Assembly (NCBI GenBank): GCA_964016885.1
Contig: OZ024761.1
Location: forward strand, 7,750,001 to 7,814,000
Length of the DNA: 64,000 bases
Direction of reading: 5' to 3'
Source of the DNA: Eledone cirrhosa
Taxonomy: Eukaryota
Both the position numbers and the translations under genes were made by a program. Below the pieces are notes generated by a model. It saw only the letters and a program-made list of their open reading frames with translations, was not told where the DNA came from and did not search any database. Positions 4,053 through 21,070 of the stretch are shown here, piece after piece. Positions within the stretch are counted from its first letter, which is position 1. Each line of letters opens with the position of its first letter.

Positions 4053-4090
4053 TCTTAATGTTTTGGACACTAGTCCTTCATCAGAAAATA
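4053..4090 (-). ncRNA. Degenerate hammerhead motif (Penelope-like remnant)
   Basis: CTGATGA-a-ggac-tagt-gtcc-AAAACATTA. The expected CGAAACG has decayed to CAAAACA, so it is probably inactive. Confidence 0.5.
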
Positions 4091-7405: not shown

Positions 7406-8350
7406 GTGCTGAAAAGTGGACGTAAAATGATGATGATGATGATGAAATTATCCTCTCAGATTCATACACTTATTGCAGCAGTCCTACCTCCCTTGTAAAG
7501 GTAACAGCTCTACCTGTTTGTGACACTTATTGCAGCAGTCCTACCTCCCTTGTAAAGGTAACAGCTCTACCTGTTTGTGACACTTATTGTAGCAGTCCTA
7601 CCTCCCTAGTAAAGGTAACAGCTCTACCTGTTTGTGACACTTATTGTAGCAGTCCTACCTCCCTTGTAAAGGTAACAGCTCTACCTGTTTGTGACACTTA
7701 TTGTAGCAGTCCTACCTCCCTAGTAAAGGTAACAGCTCTACCTGTTTGTGACACTTATTGTAGCAGTCCTACCTCCCTAGTAAAGGTAACAGCTCTACCT
7801 GTTTGTGACACTTATTGCAGTGGTCCTACCTCCCTAGTAAAGGTAACAGCTCTACCTGTTTGTGACACTTATTGTAGCAGTCCTACCTCCCTAGTAAAGG
7901 TAACAGCTCTACCTGTTTGTGACACTTATTGTAGCAGTCCTACCTCCCTTGTAAAGGTAACAGCTCTACCTGTTTGTGACACTTATTGCAGCAGTCCTAC
8001 CTCCCTTGTAAAGGTAACAGCTCTACCTGTTTGTGACACTTATTGTAGCAGTCCTACCTCCCTAGTAAAGGTAACAGCTCTACCTGTTTGTGACACTTAT
8101 TGCAGCAGTCCTACCTCCCTTGTAAAGGTAACAGTTCTACCTGTTTGTAACACTTATTGCAGTGGTCCTACCTCCCTTGTAAAGGTAACAGCTCTACCTG
8201 TTTGTGACACTTATTGCAGTGGTCCTACCTCCCTTGTAAAGGTAACAGCTCTACCTGTTTGTGACACTTATTGCAGCAGTCCTACCTCCCTAGTAAAGGT
8301 AACAGTTCTACCCTTTCGCAGTACCTTTAAAGCCAGAAACTTTTCAGCAC
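7406..8350. mobile_element. Mariner-derived MITE containing a 57-bp x about 15 tandem array (7466-8312)
   Basis: The inverted ends are gtgctgaaaagt (7406-7417) and acttttcagcac (8339-8350). The minus strand at about 7452-7484 reads DCCNKCMNLRG, like the mariner transposase C-terminus RWxKCVxxxGxY. Units start at 7466, 7523 and 7580. Confidence 0.7.
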
Positions 8351-8366: not shown

Positions 8367-9886
8367 ATCATCATCATTTTATGTCCGTTCTTCCACGCTA
8401 GCATGGGTTAGACGGGTTGTCCTGTTGTGGGCAGTGTCCAGTCAGCTGACCTTGTCTTGCTCATATGGGAACTGATTCTGGCTTGATTTCTACAGCTGGA
8501 TGCCCTTCCTAACACCAACCTCATTTACAGTGAGTGTTGGGTGCTTTTTTGCCGTGGCACCTCCACGACCACTTTACAGTGTGGGCTGGGTGCTTTCTTT
8601 TCATGGCGCCTAGACGTCCACTTTACAGTGTGGGCTGGGTGCTTTTTTGCCATGGCACCTCCACGACCACTTTACAGTGTAGGCTGGGTGCTTTTTTGCC
8701 ATGGCACCTCCACGACCACTTTACAGTGTGGGCTGGGTGCTTTTTTGCCGTGGCACCTCCACGACCACTTTACAGTGTAGGCTGGGTGCTTTTTTTGCCA
8801 TGGCACCTCCACGACCACTTTACAGTGTAGGCTGGGTGCTTTTTTGCCATGGCACCTCCACGACCACTTTACAGTGTAGGCTGGGTGCTTTTTTGCCGTG
8901 GCACCTCCACGACCACTTTACAGTGTAGGCTGGGTGCTTTTTTGCCGTGGCACCTCCACGACCACTTTACAGTGTAGGCTGGGTGCTTTTTTGCCGTGGC
9001 ACCTCCACGGCCACTTTACAGTGTAGGCTGGGTGCTTTTTTTGCCGTGGCACCTCCACGACCACTTTACAGTGTAGGCTGGGTGCTTTTTTGCCGTGGCA
9101 CCTCCACGACCACTTTACAGTGTGGGCTGGGTGCTTTTTTGCAGTGGCACCTCCACGACCACTTTACAGTGTGGGCTGGGTGCTTTTTTTGCCATGGCAC
9201 CTCCACGACCACTTTACAGTGTAGGCTGGGTGCTTTTTTGCCATGGCACCTCCACGACCACTTTACAGTGTAGGCTGGGTGCTTTTTTGCCGTGGCACCT
9301 CCACGACCACTTTACAGTGTAGGCTGGGTGCTTTTTTTGCCATGGCACCTCCACGACCACTTTACAGTGTAGGCTGGGTGCTTTTTTGCCATGGCACCTC
9401 CACGACCACTTTACAGTGTAGGCTGGGTGCTTTTTTGCCGTGGCACCTCCACGACCACTTTACAGTGTAGGCTGGGTGCTTTTTTGCCGTGGCACCTCCA
9501 TGACCACTTTACAGTGTAGGCTGGGTGCTTTTTTGCCGTGGCACCTCCACGGCCACTTTACAGTGTAGGCTGGGTGCTTTTTTTGCCGTGGCACCTCCAC
9601 GACCACTTTACAGTGTGGGCTGGGTGCTTTTTTGCAGTGGCACCTCCACGACCACTTTACAGTGTGGGCTGGGTGCTTTTTTGTCATGGCACCTCCACGA
9701 CCACTTTGCAGTGGAATGATAGGGACCCCAGTCCCTATCATCTCATTTCTACAGCTGAGTAAACTGGAGCAATGTGAAATAAAGTGTCTTGCTCAAGGAA
9801 ACAACACATCACCCGGTCTGAGAATTGAACTCATCCTCTCGATTGCAAGGCCAATGCTCTAACCACTAAGCCATGTGCCTTCACAC
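8367..9886 (-). mobile_element. SINE family 1 (tail type B) with an internal 48-50-bp unit amplified about 24 times
   Basis: The head has an A-box TGGCTTAGTGG near 9865-9875. The array of ctttacagtgtaggctgggtgcttttttgccgtggcacctccacgacca spans about 8524-9713. The RTE-type tail is at 8367-8480. Confidence 0.88.
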
Positions 9887-10180: not shown

Positions 10181-10324
10181 CTCAGTACAACAGTGATGTT
10201 GTCACCCCCGTCATCTGGTGACTTCACATGAGATGATGCTGGAAGCTCTGCATTACTGACCCTAGGGTGACGCAGAGAACAAGGAAAGCTTTGTTGAAAT
10301 GTATTGTCTTCTTTCTTCTTCTTC
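10181..10324 (-). CDS. KIF12: Kinesin (KIF12-like) coding exon, N-terminus up to the first motor-domain strand
   Basis: Minus strand reads gtgtgtag|G AAG AAG AAG AAA...CTG AG|gtaaga. The exon is 144 nt, phase 2 to 2, and encodes KKKKEDNTFQQSFPCSLRHPRVSNAELPASSHVKSPDDGGDNITVVL(R). It joins the next exon to give the kinesin motif NITVVLRVRP. The family symbol comes from recalled similarity, not a search. Confidence 0.88.
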
Positions 10325-11049: not shown

Positions 11050-11190
11050 ATATTGAAAGAGTGGAGAATAACATGGTCAACAGTACAAAAAAGGGTTTTA
11101 TTTACAGTCTAACAATCAATGAAACAATTGTTAAGACTGTAAATAAAACCCTTTTTTGTACTGTTGACCATGTTATTTTTCACTCCTTCA

Positions 11191-11194
<4 letters not shown>
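11050..11194. repeat. Inverted repeat with about 66-bp arms and a 10-nt loop
   Basis: aataacatggtcaacagtacaaaaagggttttatttacagtct pairs with agactgtaaataaaaccctttttgtactgttgaccatgttatt. Confidence 0.85.
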
Positions 11195-11221
<27 letters not shown>

Positions 11222-11335
11222 TAAGAGGAATTCCAACTTTGTCTGATTTACTCGTTTTATTTACAATCCTTTAAAATATATATAATGGTATTATAATGAA
11301 ATAGTATGATAGAATATTAAATTCTAAGTGTTAAT

Positions 11336-11374
11336 TGAACAAGTACTTTCATGCTTTCGCAATCTTCAGGTTCA
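11336..11374 (-). ncRNA. Minimal hammerhead ribozyme motif (mirror copy)
   Basis: Exact reverse complement of 11448-11486. Confidence 0.78.
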
Positions 11375-11447
11375 TAATATGTGGTGACAGTCAAGTTTGC
11401 AATTTTCAACTGTTGAAAATTGCAAACTTGACTGTCACCACATATTA

Positions 11448-11486
11448 TGAACCTGAAGATTGCGAAAGCATGAAAGTACTTGTTCA
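11448..11486 (+). ncRNA. Minimal hammerhead ribozyme motif
   Basis: tgaac-CTGAAGA-t-tgc-gaaa-gca-t-GAAA-gtac-T-T-gttca. Stem I is 5 bp, stem II is capped by a GNRA loop, and stem III is the palindrome AGTACT. Confidence 0.78.
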
Positions 11487-11648
11487 ATTAACACTTAGAA
11501 TTTAATATTCTATCATACTATTTCATTATAATACCATTATACATTTTAAAGGATTGTAAATAAAACAAGTAAATCAGACAAAGTTGGAATTCCTCTTATT
11601 AATATAATCTTCTATACACAATCATACACACCCGTGTATATTTACCTA

Positions 11649-11683
<35 letters not shown>

Positions 11684-11699
11684 GACATGTCGATATGTA

Positions 11700-14131
11700 A
11701 CACAAACTTAAAAAAACCCAACAACCATCTGATCACCTATTGATCAGGGGAGCATTCTAGTCAGATAGATTTTATCCTCATCAGAGGGCATGATAGATGG
11801 ATGGTCGTAAACACAAAAGCCTTCCCTGGTGAGGAATGTACCTCCCGACATAACTTAGTTGTCAGCGACCTCATTGTCAAAACTAGACGAACTTGGAAAC
11901 AGAAAGCAACCTGGAGAAGAAAGATCTGGAAGCTGAAAGACCCCTCAGCCAGTAACAGATTTAAAGATATTTTACTCGATGCCTATGACAGTAAAGAAGA
12001 ACAGATAGAGGCATCCAATGTAGAAGAGTACTGGGAGTTCCTAAAAAATAACTTACTAAAGGCAATGGACGAAATCAGTGTATCTGGAATGATAAAGGTG
12101 AGCTTGCCCTCACAAGTGCTGAGAAGAAAGATGCATGGAAGAGCGATTATGAAAGATTACTAAACGAGGAGAATGCATGGGAAAAAGAGACCCTACCCCA
12201 AGTGGACCCTATAGAGGAGCCAGCAGTAGAAGTCAGCAGCAGCATAGTAAGTAAGGCAATCAAAGATATGAAGACGGGGAAGGCAACCAGTCTATCGGGT
12301 ATAGCTGCCGAGATGCTGAAGGCATCTGGGTCTGTAGGTCACACTATAACCACACGTATTCTTAACCAGGTAGTACTAGAGGGTGTCATACCAAAGGATT
12401 GGTGCAGCAGCATCATTGTCAACTGCTACAAAGGTAAAGGTGATGCACTAGATAGAGTAAACTATAGAGGAATAAAGCTGATGGACCAGGTCATGAAAGT
12501 AATAGAAAGAGTTAAAGCATAGCTGATTAGGGACCGGGTGAAACTAGATGAGATGTAATTTGGGTTTGTGTCAGGAAAAGGCAATAATGATGCCCTCTTC
12601 CTTGTTAGGCAGTTACAGGAAAAGTACCTAGCTAAAAGTAAGTCGCTCTACCTGGGATTTGTCGATCTGAAAATAGCCTTCGACAGAGCTCTCCGTGCTA
12701 TAATCTGGTGGGCTTTTAGAAAACTAGGAGAAGCAAAGTTAGGGTTAGCAATGACTATAGCGAGGAATTTAGCATACAGGTCCGTGTCCACCAGGGCTCT
12801 GTTCTTAGCCCTCTCCTGTTCATTATAGTTTTGCAGGCAATAACGGAGGAGTTTAAGACCGGATAGGAACTCCTGTATGAGTTTAAGACCATGGGAACTC
12901 CTGTATGCGGATGACCTAGCACTTATATCTGAATCTATGGTAGAACTAGAGAAGAAATTCCAAACATGGAAGCAGGGACTAGAAAGAAAGGATCTCAAAG
13001 TCAACCTGACAAAGACGAAGATCCTTGTAAGTAGATGAGAAAACAGAACCCAGATCCCCTCAGGGAAATGGCTTTGCTCAGTATGTAGGAAAGGTGTAGG
13101 TAGGAACTCCATCCTCTGCCCCAAATGCAAACAATGAGTACACAAGAGATGTAGTGGGATCTCAGGAAGCTTAACTAAGAATGTAGGCTTAAAATGTAGC
13201 AGCTGCGCTGGGACAGCAAGCAGCATACGGCCACAGGAAACAAGCACCACCAAACTCTAGGAGGGCTCTGTAGAAACAGTAGACAGCTTCTGCTACCTAG
13301 GTGACTGAATTAACAGTGGAGGTGGGTGTTCAGAAAGTACAATAACTAGGGTAAGAACAGGATAGAAGAAGTTCAGGGAACTACTGCCACTGCTAGCTGC
13401 AAAAGGCTTTTCCCTCAAAATGAAAGGCAGACTGTATGATGTGTATATACGAACAGCAATGTTACATGGTAATGGGACCTGGGCGCTGTCTATAGAAGAC
13501 TTGCGTAGATTAGAAAGAAACGAAGCCTGCATGCTGCGATGGATGTGTAGCAGTAATATACGCAAACGACAAAGCATAAATGAATTGAGAGAGAGACTGA
13601 GCATAAGAGGAATCAAATGCTGTGTGCAGGATAGGTGGTTGTGTTGGTATGGACATGTGATGCGTATGAAGGATGACAGCTGCATAAAAAGGTGCAGAGC
13701 ACTAGAAGTCGATGGAAGCCGCGGAGTGGGGAGACCCAAGAAGGCCTGGGATGAGATGATAAAAGCCGACCTCACACAAAAACACCTCTCAAAGGCGATG
13801 ACACACGACCGTGACCTCTGGCGACACACAGTAATACGGAAGACCCGACACCTTCACGAATACAAGCCGAAGCTGAAGCATATAGACAATATGCCCCCAC
13901 ACCCTCCCACTGCAAAGTGGACGTGTAGGCGCCATGGAAAAAAGCACCCAGCCCTCACTGTAAATGAGGTTGGTGTTAGGAAGGGCACCCAGCTGTAGAA
14001 ATTAAGCCAGAATCAGTTCCCGTATGAGCAAGACAAGGTCACCTGACCAGACACTGCCCACAACAGGACAACCCGTCTAACCCATGCTAGCATGGAAGAA
14101 TCGATGTAAAACGGTGATGATGATGGTGATG
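11700..14131 (+). mobile_element. 5'-truncated, decayed RTE-clade LINE
   Basis: It contains the endonuclease end SQIDFIL...SRHNLVVSD and RT motifs YKGKGDALDRVNYRGIKL, FVDLKIAFDR and LYADDL (12901-12918), then WYGHVMR...GRPKKAW. There are many stops, frameshifts and internal deletions. It ends in tail type B and (GAT)n. Confidence 0.93.
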
Positions 14132-14238: not shown

Positions 14239-14297
14239 ATTATGAAGGATACCAGTGATTATTCCTTGGGTTTCTTGTTGGCAGTGATCCTTTGGTC
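14239..14297 (-). other. Candidate 5' UTR exon of the kinesin gene, supplying the AT of a split ATG
   Basis: It has a poly-T tract with a caaag| acceptor and a strong CATAAT|gtaagt donor. Splicing to exon 10324 gives ATA AT|G AAG, with an in-frame TAA six codons upstream. Confidence 0.55.
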
Positions 14298-14376
14298 CTT
14301 TGATTGCAGCAAAAGGAAAAAAAAAAAAAAAAGGTGAACAAAAAAAACCCCCAGATAATATTCTTTTGTTCCTTAA

Positions 14377-15810
14377 CCCTTTAGCATTTAAACCGGCTGT
14401 ATTTAGCCAGAATTCTCTCATCTCCCTCTGTTCAAACTGGCTATAACTGGCCCCTCATATTTATGTTAAGGTATTGTTCTCAAAATAAATAATATCAAAA
14501 TCTTGTAAATTTGATATTATGTGAGATAAAGTCTTTACTGTGAAAATACAATAGTATATATAGAGTAATGTAAATGTTATGTGCGATATTATGTGAGATA
14601 AAGTCTTTACTGTGAAAATACAATAGTATATATAGAGTAATGTAAATGTTATCTGAGATATTATGTGAGGTAAAGCCTTTACAGTGAAAATACAATAGTA
14701 TATATAGAGTAATGTAAATGTTATGTGAGATATTATGTGAGGTAAAGCCTTTACAGTGAAAATACAATAGTATATATAGAGTAATGTAAATGTTATGTGA
14801 GATATTATGTGAGGTAAAGCCTTTACAGTGAAAATACAATAGTATATATAGAGTAATGTAAATGCTATGTGAGATATTATGTGAGATAAAGTCTTTACTG
14901 TGAAAATATAATAGTATATATAGAGTAATGTAAATGTTATGTGAGATATTATGTGAGATAAAGTCTTTACTGTGAAAATACAATAGTATATATAGAGTAA
15001 TGTAAATGTTATGTGAGATATTATGTGAGGTAAAGCCTTTACAGTGAAAATACAATAGTATATATAGAGTAATGTAAATGTTATCTGAGATATTATGTGA
15101 GGTAAAGCCTTTACAGTGAAAATACAATAGTATATATAGAGTAATGTAAATGTTATGTGAGATATTATGTGAGGTAAAGCCTTTACAGTTAAAATACAAT
15201 AGTATATATAGAGTAATGTAAATGTTATGTGAGATATTATGTGAGGTAAAGCCTTTACAGTGAAAATACAATAGTATATATAGAGTAATGTAAATGCTAT
15301 GTGAGATATTATGTGAGATAAAGTCTTTACTGTGAAAATATAATAGTATATATAGAGTAATGTAAATGTTATGTGAGATATTATGTGAGATAAAGTCTTT
15401 ACTGTGAAAATACAATAGTATATATAGAGTAATGTAAATGTTATGTGAGATATTATGTGAGATAAAGTCTTTACTGTGAAAATATAATAGTATATATAGA
15501 GTAATGTAAATGTTATGTGAGATATTATGTGAGGTAAAGCCTTTACAGTGAAAATACAATAGTATATATAGAGTAATGTAAATGCTATGTGAGATATTAT
15601 GTGAGGTAAAGCCTTTACTGTGAAAATACAATAGTGTATATATAGAGTAATGTAAATGCTATGTGAGATATTATGTGAGGTAAAGACTTTACTGTGAAAA
15701 TACAATAGTATATATAGAATAATGTAAATGTTATGTGAGATATTATGTGAGGTAAAGCCTTTACTGTGAAAATACAATAGTATATATAGAGTAATGTAAA
15801 TGCTAAAGGG
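14377..15810. mobile_element. piggyBac-type MITE containing a 72-bp x about 18 tandem array (about 14512-15805)
   Basis: TTAA-ccctttagcattta...taaatgctaaaggg-TTAA gives perfect 14-bp TIRs and a TTAA TSD. The unit period is 72 (14521, 14593). Confidence 0.9.
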
Positions 15811-16430: not shown

Positions 16431-17690
16431 TTACTTAAATAAAAGCATATGTATTCATTTTTAGAGCCCTTAACTAAATTTGTTAGGGTGTAGTTTCAAC
16501 ATTCTTATTCCCCTTTCTTCTCTACCTCTTGGTACAACCTGTAGTAGTGATATAAGTAAACTAATAATTGTAAAATGTTGTTTGTGACTGAGAGAGAGGG
16601 AGAGAGAGAGAGGGGGAGAGGGAGGGAAGAAGGGTGGGAGGGAGGGCGAGAGAGATAGAGAGGGAGAGAGACATAGAGAGACTAATATAGAGAGGGGGGA
16701 GGGAGGGAAGGAGGGCGTTAGTGAGAGAGAGAGGGAGGGAAGGAGGGAGAGAGAGAGAGAGAAGGAGGGTGAGAGAGAGAGATTGTTTACGAATCTAGCA
16801 TAAATAAGTAAATTAGTTTATGTATATATATGTATGTATATGTATGTATATGTACCTATATATGTACCTATATATGTATGTATATGTACCTATATATGTA
16901 TGTATATGTACCTATATATGTATGTATATGTACCTATATATGTATGTATATGTATGTATATGTACCTATATATGTATGTATATGTATGTATATGTACCTA
17001 TATATGTATGTATATGTACCTATATATGTATGTATATGTACCTATATATGTATGTATATGTACCTATATATGTATGTATATGTACCTATATATGTATGTA
17101 TATGTACCTATATATGTATGTATATGTACCTATATATGTATGTATATGTATGTATATGTACCTATATATGTATGTATATGTACCTATATATGTATATATA
17201 TGTATGTATATGTACCTATATATGTATGTATATGTATGTATATGTACCTATATATGTATGTATATGTACCTATATATGTATATGTACCTATATATATATG
17301 TATATGTACCTATATATGTATATATGTATATGTACCTATATATGTATATATGTATATGTATATATATATATGTATATGTACCTATATATGTACCTATATA
17401 TGTATATGTACCTATATATGTATGTATATATATATGTTCAGCCCATCGGTAGGGGTTCTCCTACATTGATATAAAGTAGTGGCCGTACTCGAAAACGAGT
17501 TGGCAGCCACCATATGTGTGTATATATATATATATATACATATGGGTGTGTTTATATATATATATATACATATGGGTGTGTTTATATATATATATACATT
17601 GGGTGTGTTTATATATATATATATATACATATGGGTGTGTTTATATATATATATATACATTGGGTGTGTTTATATATATATATATATAGC
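16139..17690. repeat. Micro- and minisatellite cluster: (TA)n 16139-16198 and 16364-16425, GA-rich 16590-16782, about 20-bp tatatgtatgtatatgtacc 16819-17435, about 30-bp (TA)n-catatgggtgtgtt 17511-17690
   Basis: Direct reading of the sequence. Confidence 0.9.
16260..16290 (+). ncRNA. Degenerate hammerhead/Penelope terminal motif between (TA)n tracts
   Basis: CTGAAGAAGGGCTAACACCAGACACGTC resembles CTGAAGAAGGGnnnnnCCCGAAACGTC. Its downstream aagcgtgaaactaataa recurs at about 19455. Confidence 0.4.
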
Positions 17691-17804
17691 ATTTATGGAC
17701 AGAATTTGTGTACGAGGGTGTACATGTGTGTGTGTGTGTGCGTGCTATTGTGTGTGTATGTGTCAATGTTTCTATGTGTGTACAAGTGTTTGTATGTGTA
17801 TGTT

Positions 17805-18121
17805 TGTGCTAGTGTGTGCTAGTGTGTGTGCTAGTGTGTGTGCTAACGTGTGTGTGCTAGTGTGTGTGTGCCAGTGTGTGTGCTAGTGTGTGTGTGTCAG
17901 TGTGTGTGTGTGTGCTAGTGTGTGTGTGAGTGCTAGTGTGCGTGTGTGTGCCAGTGTGTGTGTGCTAGTGGGTGTGCTAGTGCTAGTGTGTGTGTGAGTG
18001 CTAGTGTGTGTGTGTGTGCCAGTGTGTGTGTGAGTGCTAGTGTGTGTGTGCTTGTGTGTGTGTGCCAGTGTGTGTGTGAGTGCTAGTGAGTGTGTGTGTG
18101 TGTGTGCCAGTGTGTGTATGC
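17805..18121. repeat. Irregular GCYAG(TG)n satellite, same family as the large array
   Basis: gctagtgtgtgt and gccagtgtgtgt units with variable TG number. Confidence 0.88.
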
Positions 18122-18455
18122 CAAACCCGTAGCCAGGTTTTCTGCCAGGTAATGCCATTTGAATATATGTTAAAAAATGGGGATGCCAAAACAAAATAAA
18201 GAAACATTGTTCAGTAAAATATATATATTATTCCAAACAAAGTCACATTATACAATGAAATGTCAAAAACAATAGTTTTCCTGGTTTCTTTAACCACTCT
18301 TTTGCAAGGTCTTCAAATTTAATTTTTTCACATTCATCTTTTTCGAAAAAGATGAATGTCAAATTGCATTCTGTGTCAGGTGACTTCTTCTTTGTGGTGA
18401 GTCTATGTGAGCCATAGCAGACAACAGGCATTCAACTGACGAACTATAGCCACAT

Positions 18456-19015: not shown

Positions 19016-19151
19016 ATTATTATTGCAGAGGCCGTTGATTGATATTTTGTATGTAATAATTTATATATATCTTGAATATCTATTGTTTCAGTATTACATC
19101 GTTTACCAAAATAGTTTTTTACAAGACTTATATGGACACTACATTGAGCTT

Positions 19152-19762
19152 ATATACGATATTAAACAAATGGAAACTATATTTCCATATTTATTTCATT
19201 ATACATATTTCAGGGATCTGACGAAGGCATGCCATATTTTTAATATGGTATCCCTGTAATATGTATAATGAAATAAATATGGTTTTATAAATATAGTTTC
19301 CATTTGTTTAATATCATATATCTACTCCAAAAACTTGTCGAGTGCTTTATATCGGTTATAAAATATTTACTTGTTGTAACCCAACAACTTTAAATAAAAC
19401 TTTTGCATATACATATATATATATATATGTATATGTGTGTGTGTGTGTGTAAAAAGCGTGAACCTAATAAATTCTTATTTGTACTGCCTCTCTGTTTTTG
19501 TTCCCGTCTAAGTTTTAACTATATATATATATATATATAAGATATTAATAAATGGAAACTATATTTATAAAACCATATTTATTTCATTATACATATTTCA
19601 GGGATACCAAATTAAATTATGGTATGCCTTCATCAGACAAAATACAATATATAACAGTTTTACAAATAAGCTTTGACATACCCTATTAAAATGCAACCAT
19701 TGTTTTTGGAAGTCATCCGGATAGTATATATATATATATATATATACACACACGCACACACA
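19152..19762. mobile_element. Cluster of Penelope-like remnants (same family as 1596-2014) inside the transposase
   Basis: It has inverted arms and a mutated core CTGACGA...GTAA at 19218-19259. It is bounded by a 36-bp direct duplication (19116-19151 and 19763-19798). Confidence 0.7.
19580..19644 (-). ncRNA. Minimal hammerhead ribozyme motif
   Basis: tattttgt-CTGATGA-aggcatacca...tggtatccct-GAAA-tatgtat-A-atgaaata. Confidence 0.65.
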
Positions 19763-20130
19763 TTTTTACAAGACTTATATGGACACTACATTGAGCTTTC
19801 AGTAAATCGTTATCAATATTATTATCTTCAATAAATTTTTTCATGATTGGAATCGTTTTTACATAATCGAGTAAAGGTTTCAGAATTGTTGCATCTAAAA
19901 AATTATCAGATTCTAGACGTAATGCATCTATTGATAGCCATGTATTACAATTATATTCATTGAATCAATTGTTAAACAATGAAACCAAAATAGCTTTTAA
20001 TTCTACAACGATTTGACAAATATTTTAGTTTCACATTTACAATACAATTTTAGAAAAAGAATGCAGGTGTTTAATAATAGGTAATTATATAAAATATGTC
20101 CTGTATACATGTGATACCTTATACAAATTT

Positions 20131-21070
20131 TCATTTTTCATTTCATTTTATGTCCGCTTTTCCCTGCTTGCAAGGGTGGGACGGGAACTGATTCTGGCTT
20201 GATTTCTACAACTGGATGCCCTTCCTAACGCCAACCTCATTTACAGTGAGTGCTGGGTGCTTTTTTGCCGTGGCACCTACACGACCACTTTGCAGTGGAA
20301 TGATAGGGACCCCAGTCCCTATCATCTCATTTCTACAGCTGGATGCCCTTCCTAACACCAACCTCATTTACAGTGAGTGCTGGGTGCTTTTTTGCCGTGG
20401 CACCTACACGACCACTTTGCAGTGGAATGATAGGGACTCCAGTCCCTATCATCTCATTTTTACAGCTGGATGCCCTTCCTAACCCCAACCTCATTTTTAC
20501 AGTGAGTGCTGGGTGCTTTTTTGCCGTGACACCTCCACGACCACTTTGCAGTGGAATGATAGGGACCCCAGTCCCTATCATCTCATTTTTACAGCTGGAT
20601 GCCCTTCCTAACCCCAACCTCATTTTTACAGTGAGTGCTGGGTGCTTTTTTGCCGTGGCACCTCCACGACCACTTTGCAGTGGATTGATAGGGACCCCAG
20701 TCCCTATCATCTCATTTCTACAGCTGGATGCCCTTCCTAACACCAACCTCATTTACAGTGAGTGCTGGGTGCTTTTTTGCCATGGCACCTCCACGACCAC
20801 TTTGCAGTGGAATGATAGGGACCCCAGTCCCTATCATCTCATTTCTACAGCTGGATGCCCTTCCTAACACCAACCTCATTTACAGTGAGTGATGGGTGCT
20901 TTTTTGCCATGGCACCTCCACGTCCACTTTACAGTGGAATGATAGGGACCCAAGTCCCTATCATCTCATTTCTACAGCTGGATGCCCTTCCTAATGCCAA
21001 CCTCATTTACAGTGAGTGCTGAGTGCTTTTTTGCCGTGGGGCACCTCCACGACCACTTTGCAGTGGAATG
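20131..21070 (-). mobile_element. SINE family 1 3' part with a 127-bp unit repeated about 7 times
   Basis: tttctacagctggatgcccttcctaac recurs at about 20203, 20330, 20457, 20587, 20715, 20842 and 20969. Tail A is at 20131-20190. Confidence 0.88.

Follow-up and report, generated by a model that had tools for sequence, protein, structure and literature searches.

The palindrome with two hammerhead motifs at 11214-11606 is part of a 431-bp unit (11214-11644), which very probably represents a doubly truncated fold-back insertion, left by one abortive event of an endonuclease-positive Penelope-like retrotransposon (EN+ PLE). The unit consists of two head-to-head, hammerhead-bearing repeat ends with (TA)n on both sides. 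A link to Penelope-like elements had been proposed in the first-pass annotation and is borne out by the head-to-head truncated copies, the one-sided tail, two alternative 3' ends in the repeat family and the position of the hammerhead within a terminal repeat. From this structure we infer the parent element. Within the window, i.e. the whole stretch of 64,000 nucleotides of repeat-rich eukaryotic DNA that was analysed, the ORF list contained no Penelope RT or GIY-YIG gene, and among eight peptides scanned the only match was a weak RVT_1 match in a neighbouring LINE.

Structure of the insertion

The palindrome is real and near-perfect, as first described. Its arms, 11214-11410 (197 nt) and 11412-11606 (195 nt), are reverse complements that differ by two substitutions (11278/11542 and 11253/11567) and one 2-nt indel (11283-84). 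A T at 11411 does lie between the arms, but the annotated 1-nt spacer is not a plain spacer. It is templated, since the antisense arm matches the repeat family through 11413 and the sense arm begins at 11412, which results in a 2-nt overlap. At this centre, loose contig ends were found behind 11413 in 27 contigs of sequencing run X1 and 40 contigs of run X6, and before 11412 in run X5. The insert is longer than the palindrome, since the right arm, unlike the left, continues in a tail up to about 11644 (Table 1). The predicted hairpin of the tail (11607-11644) has a z-score of -4.7, and none of 200 shuffled sequences was equally stable. Both ends of the insert lie in TA-type microsatellite, inside which no target-site duplication is readable.

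Table 1. Elements of the fold-back insertion and its microsatellite borders
Feature	Position	Strand	Basis or remark
(TA)n microsatellite, left end	11192..11217	.	Probable target of the insertion, extending into the arm end; other family copies have (TA)n at the corresponding end
Copy of the element's 3' repeat, inverted and truncated at 5', with the short, untailed end	11214..11413	-	Arm comparison; family match through 11413
Minimal type I hammerhead motif, same as the plus-strand copy	11336..11374	-	
Inversion junction, templated T and 2-nt microhomology (11412-11413)	11411..11413	.	Loose contig ends
Sense 5'-truncated copy of the element's 3' repeat (pLTR-like)	11412..11606	+	
Minimal type I hammerhead motif	11448..11486	+	
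Tail on one side only (about 35-38 nt), containing an AC-rich stem-loop; exact end known to within a few bases	11607..11644	+	Family ends at 11606 and 11641-11644
(CT)n(TA)n microsatellite, right end	11648..11682	.	

The repeat family across sequencing runs

Positions 11350-11645 were compared with the contigs of four of the 18 matching runs (X1, X4, X5 and X6); the small-share runs X9-X15 and the raw RAD-seq runs X16-X18 were left out. X5 and X6 come from other organisms and studies, and X4 from the same organism and study as X1 and a different sample. Matching contigs numbered 2382 in X1, 270 in X4, one in X5 and 1537 in X6, where, in a comparison of contigs only, depth does not equal copy number. 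The arm is a high-copy repeat in several organisms.

The family has two 3' ends about 38 nt apart, and TA-type repeats follow next to both. The short end at 11606 was found in 33 contigs of X1 and 27 of X6, and the long end at 11641-44, which is uncertain by a few bases because the query ended at 11645, in 11 + 29 contigs of X1 and 21 of X6. At the locus, the left arm carries the short end and the right arm the long one. Non-palindromic copies run past the centre into other upstream sequence (27 contigs of X1 and 40 of X6). Alternative fold-backs occur as well: among the 15 joints listed, five lead from antisense to sense, with restarts at 11444, 11500, 11509, 11513 and 11579. Four of these five restart downstream of the hammerhead, and several alternative junctions remove one hammerhead; each alternative joint comes from one contig, and contigs cannot be placed unambiguously on a palindrome.

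Among the changes listed for X1 or X6, none at a core position of the hammerhead reached 3%; in X6, variation was seen in loop 2 and, as U to A at 24% of depth, at H17. Variable places among the changes listed amount to 1 of 39 positions in the hammerhead and 22 of 195 in its flanks (p = 0.07), which is only suggestive of hammerhead conservation within the family. No RNA run is among the runs listed as matching, and no family loci were found in the metagenome_contigs and viral_contigs scans. Two loci from a relaxed metagenome scan were rejected as chance matches within bacterial-type coding DNA.

The hammerhead motifs

The first-pass annotation saw two back-to-back, intact minimal hammerheads. 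Each arm indeed carries one such motif, and the two 39-nt motifs are identical and have the complete minimal type I core as defined in PMC3088659, i.e. C3-U4-G5-A6-N7-G8-A9, G12-A13-A14-A15.1, U16.1 and H17. Their stem II, however, has 3 bp and is closed by U10.1-U11.1 (11460/11471) instead of the G10.1-C11.1 pair of the metazoan minimal consensus. A U-U at the stem II closure is reported in PMC3088659 for a natural hammerhead and as the best-tolerated mismatch. In the plus-strand copy, stem I is formed by 11448-52 and 11482-86 and stem II by 11461-63 and 11468-70, C3-A9 lie at 11453-59 and G12-A14 at 11472-74. The palindromic helix III (11475-80) starts with A15.1 at 11475 and ends with U16.1 at 11480, and H17 is a U at 11481, after which the predicted cut site follows in a CUU cleavage triplet. 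The minimum free energy structure of the 40-nt motif contains helix I with 5 bp and helix II with 3 bp, at a stability not above that of shuffled sequences (z = -0.6). The motif lies 120 nt upstream of the short 3' end of the family, inside the terminal repeat.

A 32-nt motif matched twice in the window and never in 100 shuffles. The descriptor search suggested with the annotation, in relaxed form, matched once per strand in the first 22.2 kb, with at least one match in 1 of 300 simulated sequences. Chance occurrence is thus excluded by both comparisons. The suggested covariance-model search did not recover the motifs. With the Rfam hammerhead models there were no gathering matches over the 64 kb, and no hammerhead family is among the 24 matches (E <= 10) in 11150-11680; the miRNA and snoRNA matches of Rfam stayed below the gathering score and reflect the perfect hairpin.

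Like the metazoan PLE minimal hammerheads described in PMC4209133, the motif combines a type I core with a 5-bp helix I, palindromic positions 15.2-16.2 and nearly no helix III, and it comes as an opposite-strand pair; that work reports pairs of minimal hammerheads on opposite strands at a distance of about 100-700 bp. In contrast to the hammerheads described there, helix II has 3 bp (7-8 bp in the Schistosoma families), U10.1-U11.1 replaces G10.1-C11.1, A9 is not followed by a bulged base, and CUU is the cleavage triplet. The 6-nt palindromic helix III supports the annotated reading as a putative dimer-type minimal hammerhead. We rejected an assignment to the non-LTR retrozymes, for which, as far as the source describes them, hammerheads in direct tandem repeats are expected; the window has only two copies, and these are inverted.

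The Hydra clade offers the best lead to the parent, with one mismatch in a defining hammerhead feature. Among the families listed for this clade in PMC8557442, stem II is U-U-closed in 14 of 25 and H17 is a U in 10 of 25, and 26 of 27 target (TA)n. The locus resembles them in its (TA)n target, its short, U-U-closed stem II and its H17, although the (TA)n preference is common to Naiads and hence not diagnostic (PMC8557442). In all 25 hammerheads listed there for the clade, position 16.2 is a G and stem III has 3-4 bp and a loop of 1-3 nt, whereas here we find C16.2 and a 6-nt palindrome. The clade itself is defined in the same source by the protein motifs RWK, DKT and CxCX5C and by the lack of CCHH.

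Predicted folding of transcripts

Both hammerheads face outward from the centre, and the antisense arm is transcribed first on either strand, as the annotation had pointed out. The hairpin lock that it envisaged, in which the antisense arm comes first and the ribozyme is buried, is physically sound by folding prediction. A transcript of the full locus is predicted to form a hairpin of about 196 bp with -302 and -309 kcal/mol for the two strands. For the duplex of hammerhead and antisense, -67 kcal/mol is predicted, and with the antisense arm present the probability of stem I drops below 1e-40, in calculations that describe equilibrium folds of growing transcript prefixes and not kinetics. For a single arm without antisense, the predicted probabilities are about 0.03 for stem I and about 0.0001 for A15.1-U16.1. 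The 6-bp self-duplex of helix III reaches -4.8 kcal/mol and the dimer in its active register -13.8, and the cofold minimum of the dimer at -16.4 adds A14-U17 pairs, i.e. a predicted inactive register is preferred over the active one.

Muting by the hairpin would probably be redundant, since one transcript has one sense copy of a dimer-type motif that is predicted not to fold alone. With a weak monomer fold, a single sense copy and a dimer that prefers the A14-U17 register, there would probably be little activity to mute at this locus. For the single minimal metazoan hammerhead tested in PMC4209133, no monomer cleavage and a low activity of dimers are reported. The anole PLE hammerhead is described as protein-assisted and as dispensable for insertion in vitro (PMC11167929).

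Genomic surroundings

The annotation considered the palindrome to be probably intronic, which the splice scan of the first 22.2 kb, together with a homolog and Pfam search of the candidate exon, did not confirm. The scan gave one candidate exon on the minus strand (10261-10181), about 1 kb from the locus; its 48-aa frame is without homolog, which is weak evidence, and without Pfam match. Exon-like segments with strong donor sites flank the locus at 10181-10261 (minus strand) and, by eye, at about 14240-14300 (minus strand), and their phases mismatch.

About 100 bp to the right of the locus lies a decayed LINE (11744-13998), which we take to be an RTE. Its endonuclease-like and RT frames are broken by stops and frameshifts and gave a weak RVT_1 match, and a search with its peptide matched four unnamed RT proteins.

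Fold-back palindromes are routine in this window. A second, unrelated family with hammerhead cores has the head-to-head fold-back structure twice within 10 kb of the locus. One case, of PLE type, is a palindrome at 1591-2029 with 154-bp arms, a 32-nt spacer and (TA)n at both ends; its cores lie at 1782 (minus) and 1913 (plus), and one arm is extended by about 85 bp, which exceeds the 30-40 bp of a usual tail. The other is an asymmetric fold-back at 19152-19420, of which one arm ends inside the hammerhead and the core is mutated. An exact direct duplication of 36 bp (19116-19151 and 19763-19798) encloses this fold-back and a solo copy of the same family at 19520-19740. At 11050-11194 there is a third palindrome, which lacks a hammerhead and has arms of about 70 bp. 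It shares its terminal (TA)n tract with the 11214-11606 palindrome and may be a further stump at this target. Degenerate hammerhead-like cores were also seen at 4084 (minus) and 16260 (plus), near TA or AT-rich tracts.

Much of the remaining window is tandemly repeated. A GT-rich satellite with 8-14-bp units occupies 22170-64000 (42 kb), with a short copy at about 17650-18170. Judged by eye, the repeat units of four tandem arrays at 7470-8300, 8540-9720, 14500-15800 and 20190-21070 measure about 57, 48-49, 72 and 128 bp, and two of the four arrays have sequence in common with a dispersed SINE-like repeat.

A hint of RNA editing

Within 11394-11590, X4 has 11 changes at 5-26% of depth, each of which is at or below 0.03% in X1, for contig totals of 88 (X4) and 1428 (X1) million letters from differing samples and with rare variants dropped in contigs. 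A>G and T>C account for ten of these 11 (p = 1.5e-5 compared with the share of 12/45 in X1 and X6 together; p = 0.006 compared with one half). The base 5' of each of these ten is A or U and never G (p about 0.02), consistent with the ADAR neighbour preference given in PMC5625713. Among the ten are A15.1 (11475) and changes on both strands of helix III (11477 and 11478). If X4 is RNA, this would hint that duplexes of the family, not specifically of this locus, form and undergo A-to-I editing.

Heavy editing has already been reported for a palindromic Harbinger in Xenopus, and Penelope is described as massively edited in lizard (PMC5625713). A self-folding repeat as ADAR substrate is common to these hyper-edited repeats and to the family analysed here; different from the cases described there, our hint comes from contigs only and reaches a ribozyme core position. 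By title and start of abstract, and with few subscription journals covered, we found no paper that joins hammerheads with A-to-I editing or deals with host-gene tolerance of inverted PLEs.

Origin of the insertion

Published EN+ PLE insertions provide a close parallel. Inverted pLTRs are described as mostly head-to-head, with palindromic junctions and an optional 31-bp tail, and self-priming has been proposed for them (PMC3846280); PMC8557442 treats this structure as a general one. A one-sided 30-40-bp tail is published for PLE insertions (PMC8557442; PMC3846280) and has been tied to two RT start sites at an AC-rich stem-loop (PMC11167929), and for Penelope-13_HM an inverted 5' copy is described along with hammerheads on both strands (PMC8557442). 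As far as these three sources describe such insertions, the locus shares with them the head-to-head inverted, 5'-truncated copy, the palindromic junction, the 30-40-bp tail at one end, the AC-rich stem-loop in this tail, the AT-rich target and the hammerhead in the terminal repeat. It differs in that both copies are truncated to about 200 bp, which leaves no ORF, and in that no target-site duplication is readable.

The insertion might have arisen as follows. The nuclease of the element would cut a (TA)n tract. Close to the AC-rich stem-loop, reverse transcription would have a choice of two initiation sites about 38 nt apart, one giving the tailed and the other the untailed end. After about 200-230 nt the synthesis would break off, and a snap-back or template switch at the 2-nt microhomology would then create the mirror copy. 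The hammerheads would have been carried along with the terminal repeat. RNA transcribed across the locus is predicted to fold into the hairpin of about 196 bp, which buries its single sense hammerhead and would be a substrate for ADAR. As cleavage by this motif is predicted to require a second sense copy, muting would be incidental.

The first-pass annotation instead proposed a self-muting cassette, in which fold-backs that cover the hammerhead are preferentially kept in host pre-mRNAs as the hairpin prevents cleavage. Geometry and folding hold for this proposal, and the occurrence of A>G together with T>C in X4 is what duplex editing would produce. Nevertheless, we consider selection for such a cassette very unlikely and the claim unsupported. 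A head-to-head copy is the published default structure of a PLE insertion, and a transcript has one sense copy, whose monomer is predicted not to fold, in line with the uncleaved single hammerhead of PMC4209133 and an anole hammerhead that needed its protein according to PMC11167929. Moreover, junctions vary, with most of the listed antisense-to-sense joints restarting downstream of the hammerhead, many copies are non-palindromic, and no host gene was demonstrated by the splice scan of the first 22.2 kb and the homolog search of the candidate exon.

Spread of the palindrome as a unit, either MITE-like or as a non-autonomous element mobilised in trans, is likewise very unlikely. It could yield the nearly shared centres of some other copies, as contigs cross the centre at or near 11411 in X1, X4 and X6, the last from another organism, and the three runs share the entry 'left out 3' at 11411. 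Such near-identical centres would, however, also be accounted for if the natural mini-palindrome were a junction hot spot, and a spreading unit agrees poorly with the asymmetric ends, the junctions that differ between copies and the contigs of X1 and X6 that enter non-palindromic upstream sequence. MITEs have fixed symmetric termini and a fixed interior across copies; the one-sided tail, the variable junctions and the non-palindromic copies do not agree with this class. A read fold-back or assembly artefact is extremely improbable. The comparison was made with contigs and no long reads, none of the listed contigs covers the whole of 11350-11645, and the best-matching runs X1-X3 may be the source sample. 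Yet the two arms differ from each other, and both alleles at 11542 and 11567 are present in contigs of the family. The flanks differ as well, the bases at the junction are templated by the family, and palindromic junctions of the family also occur in X6, which is of another organism and another study.

For an abortive PLE insertion as the origin, the palindrome and its hammerheads are a known kind of feature and, as a locus, of low significance, being one of several stumps in 22 kb. The family is of more use, as a clean and abundant data set for the tail and inversion chemistry of PLEs, with two 3' ends and mappable junctions. Its hammerhead is an unusual variant that combines U-U closure, a CUU triplet and a 6-nt helix III palindrome, and it is cheap to assay. 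If the editing hint holds, PLE hairpins would form in vivo and editing would reach the ribozyme core. We may further speculate, as an unlikely extension, that fold-back insertion acts as a silencing route, with hairpins forming in vivo, ADAR editing both strands including A15.1 and the helix III palindrome, and hosts retaining in their introns preferentially those copies whose ribozyme is covered. If so, the insertion chemistry of Penelope would disarm its own ribozyme, and editing would make the disarming permanent.
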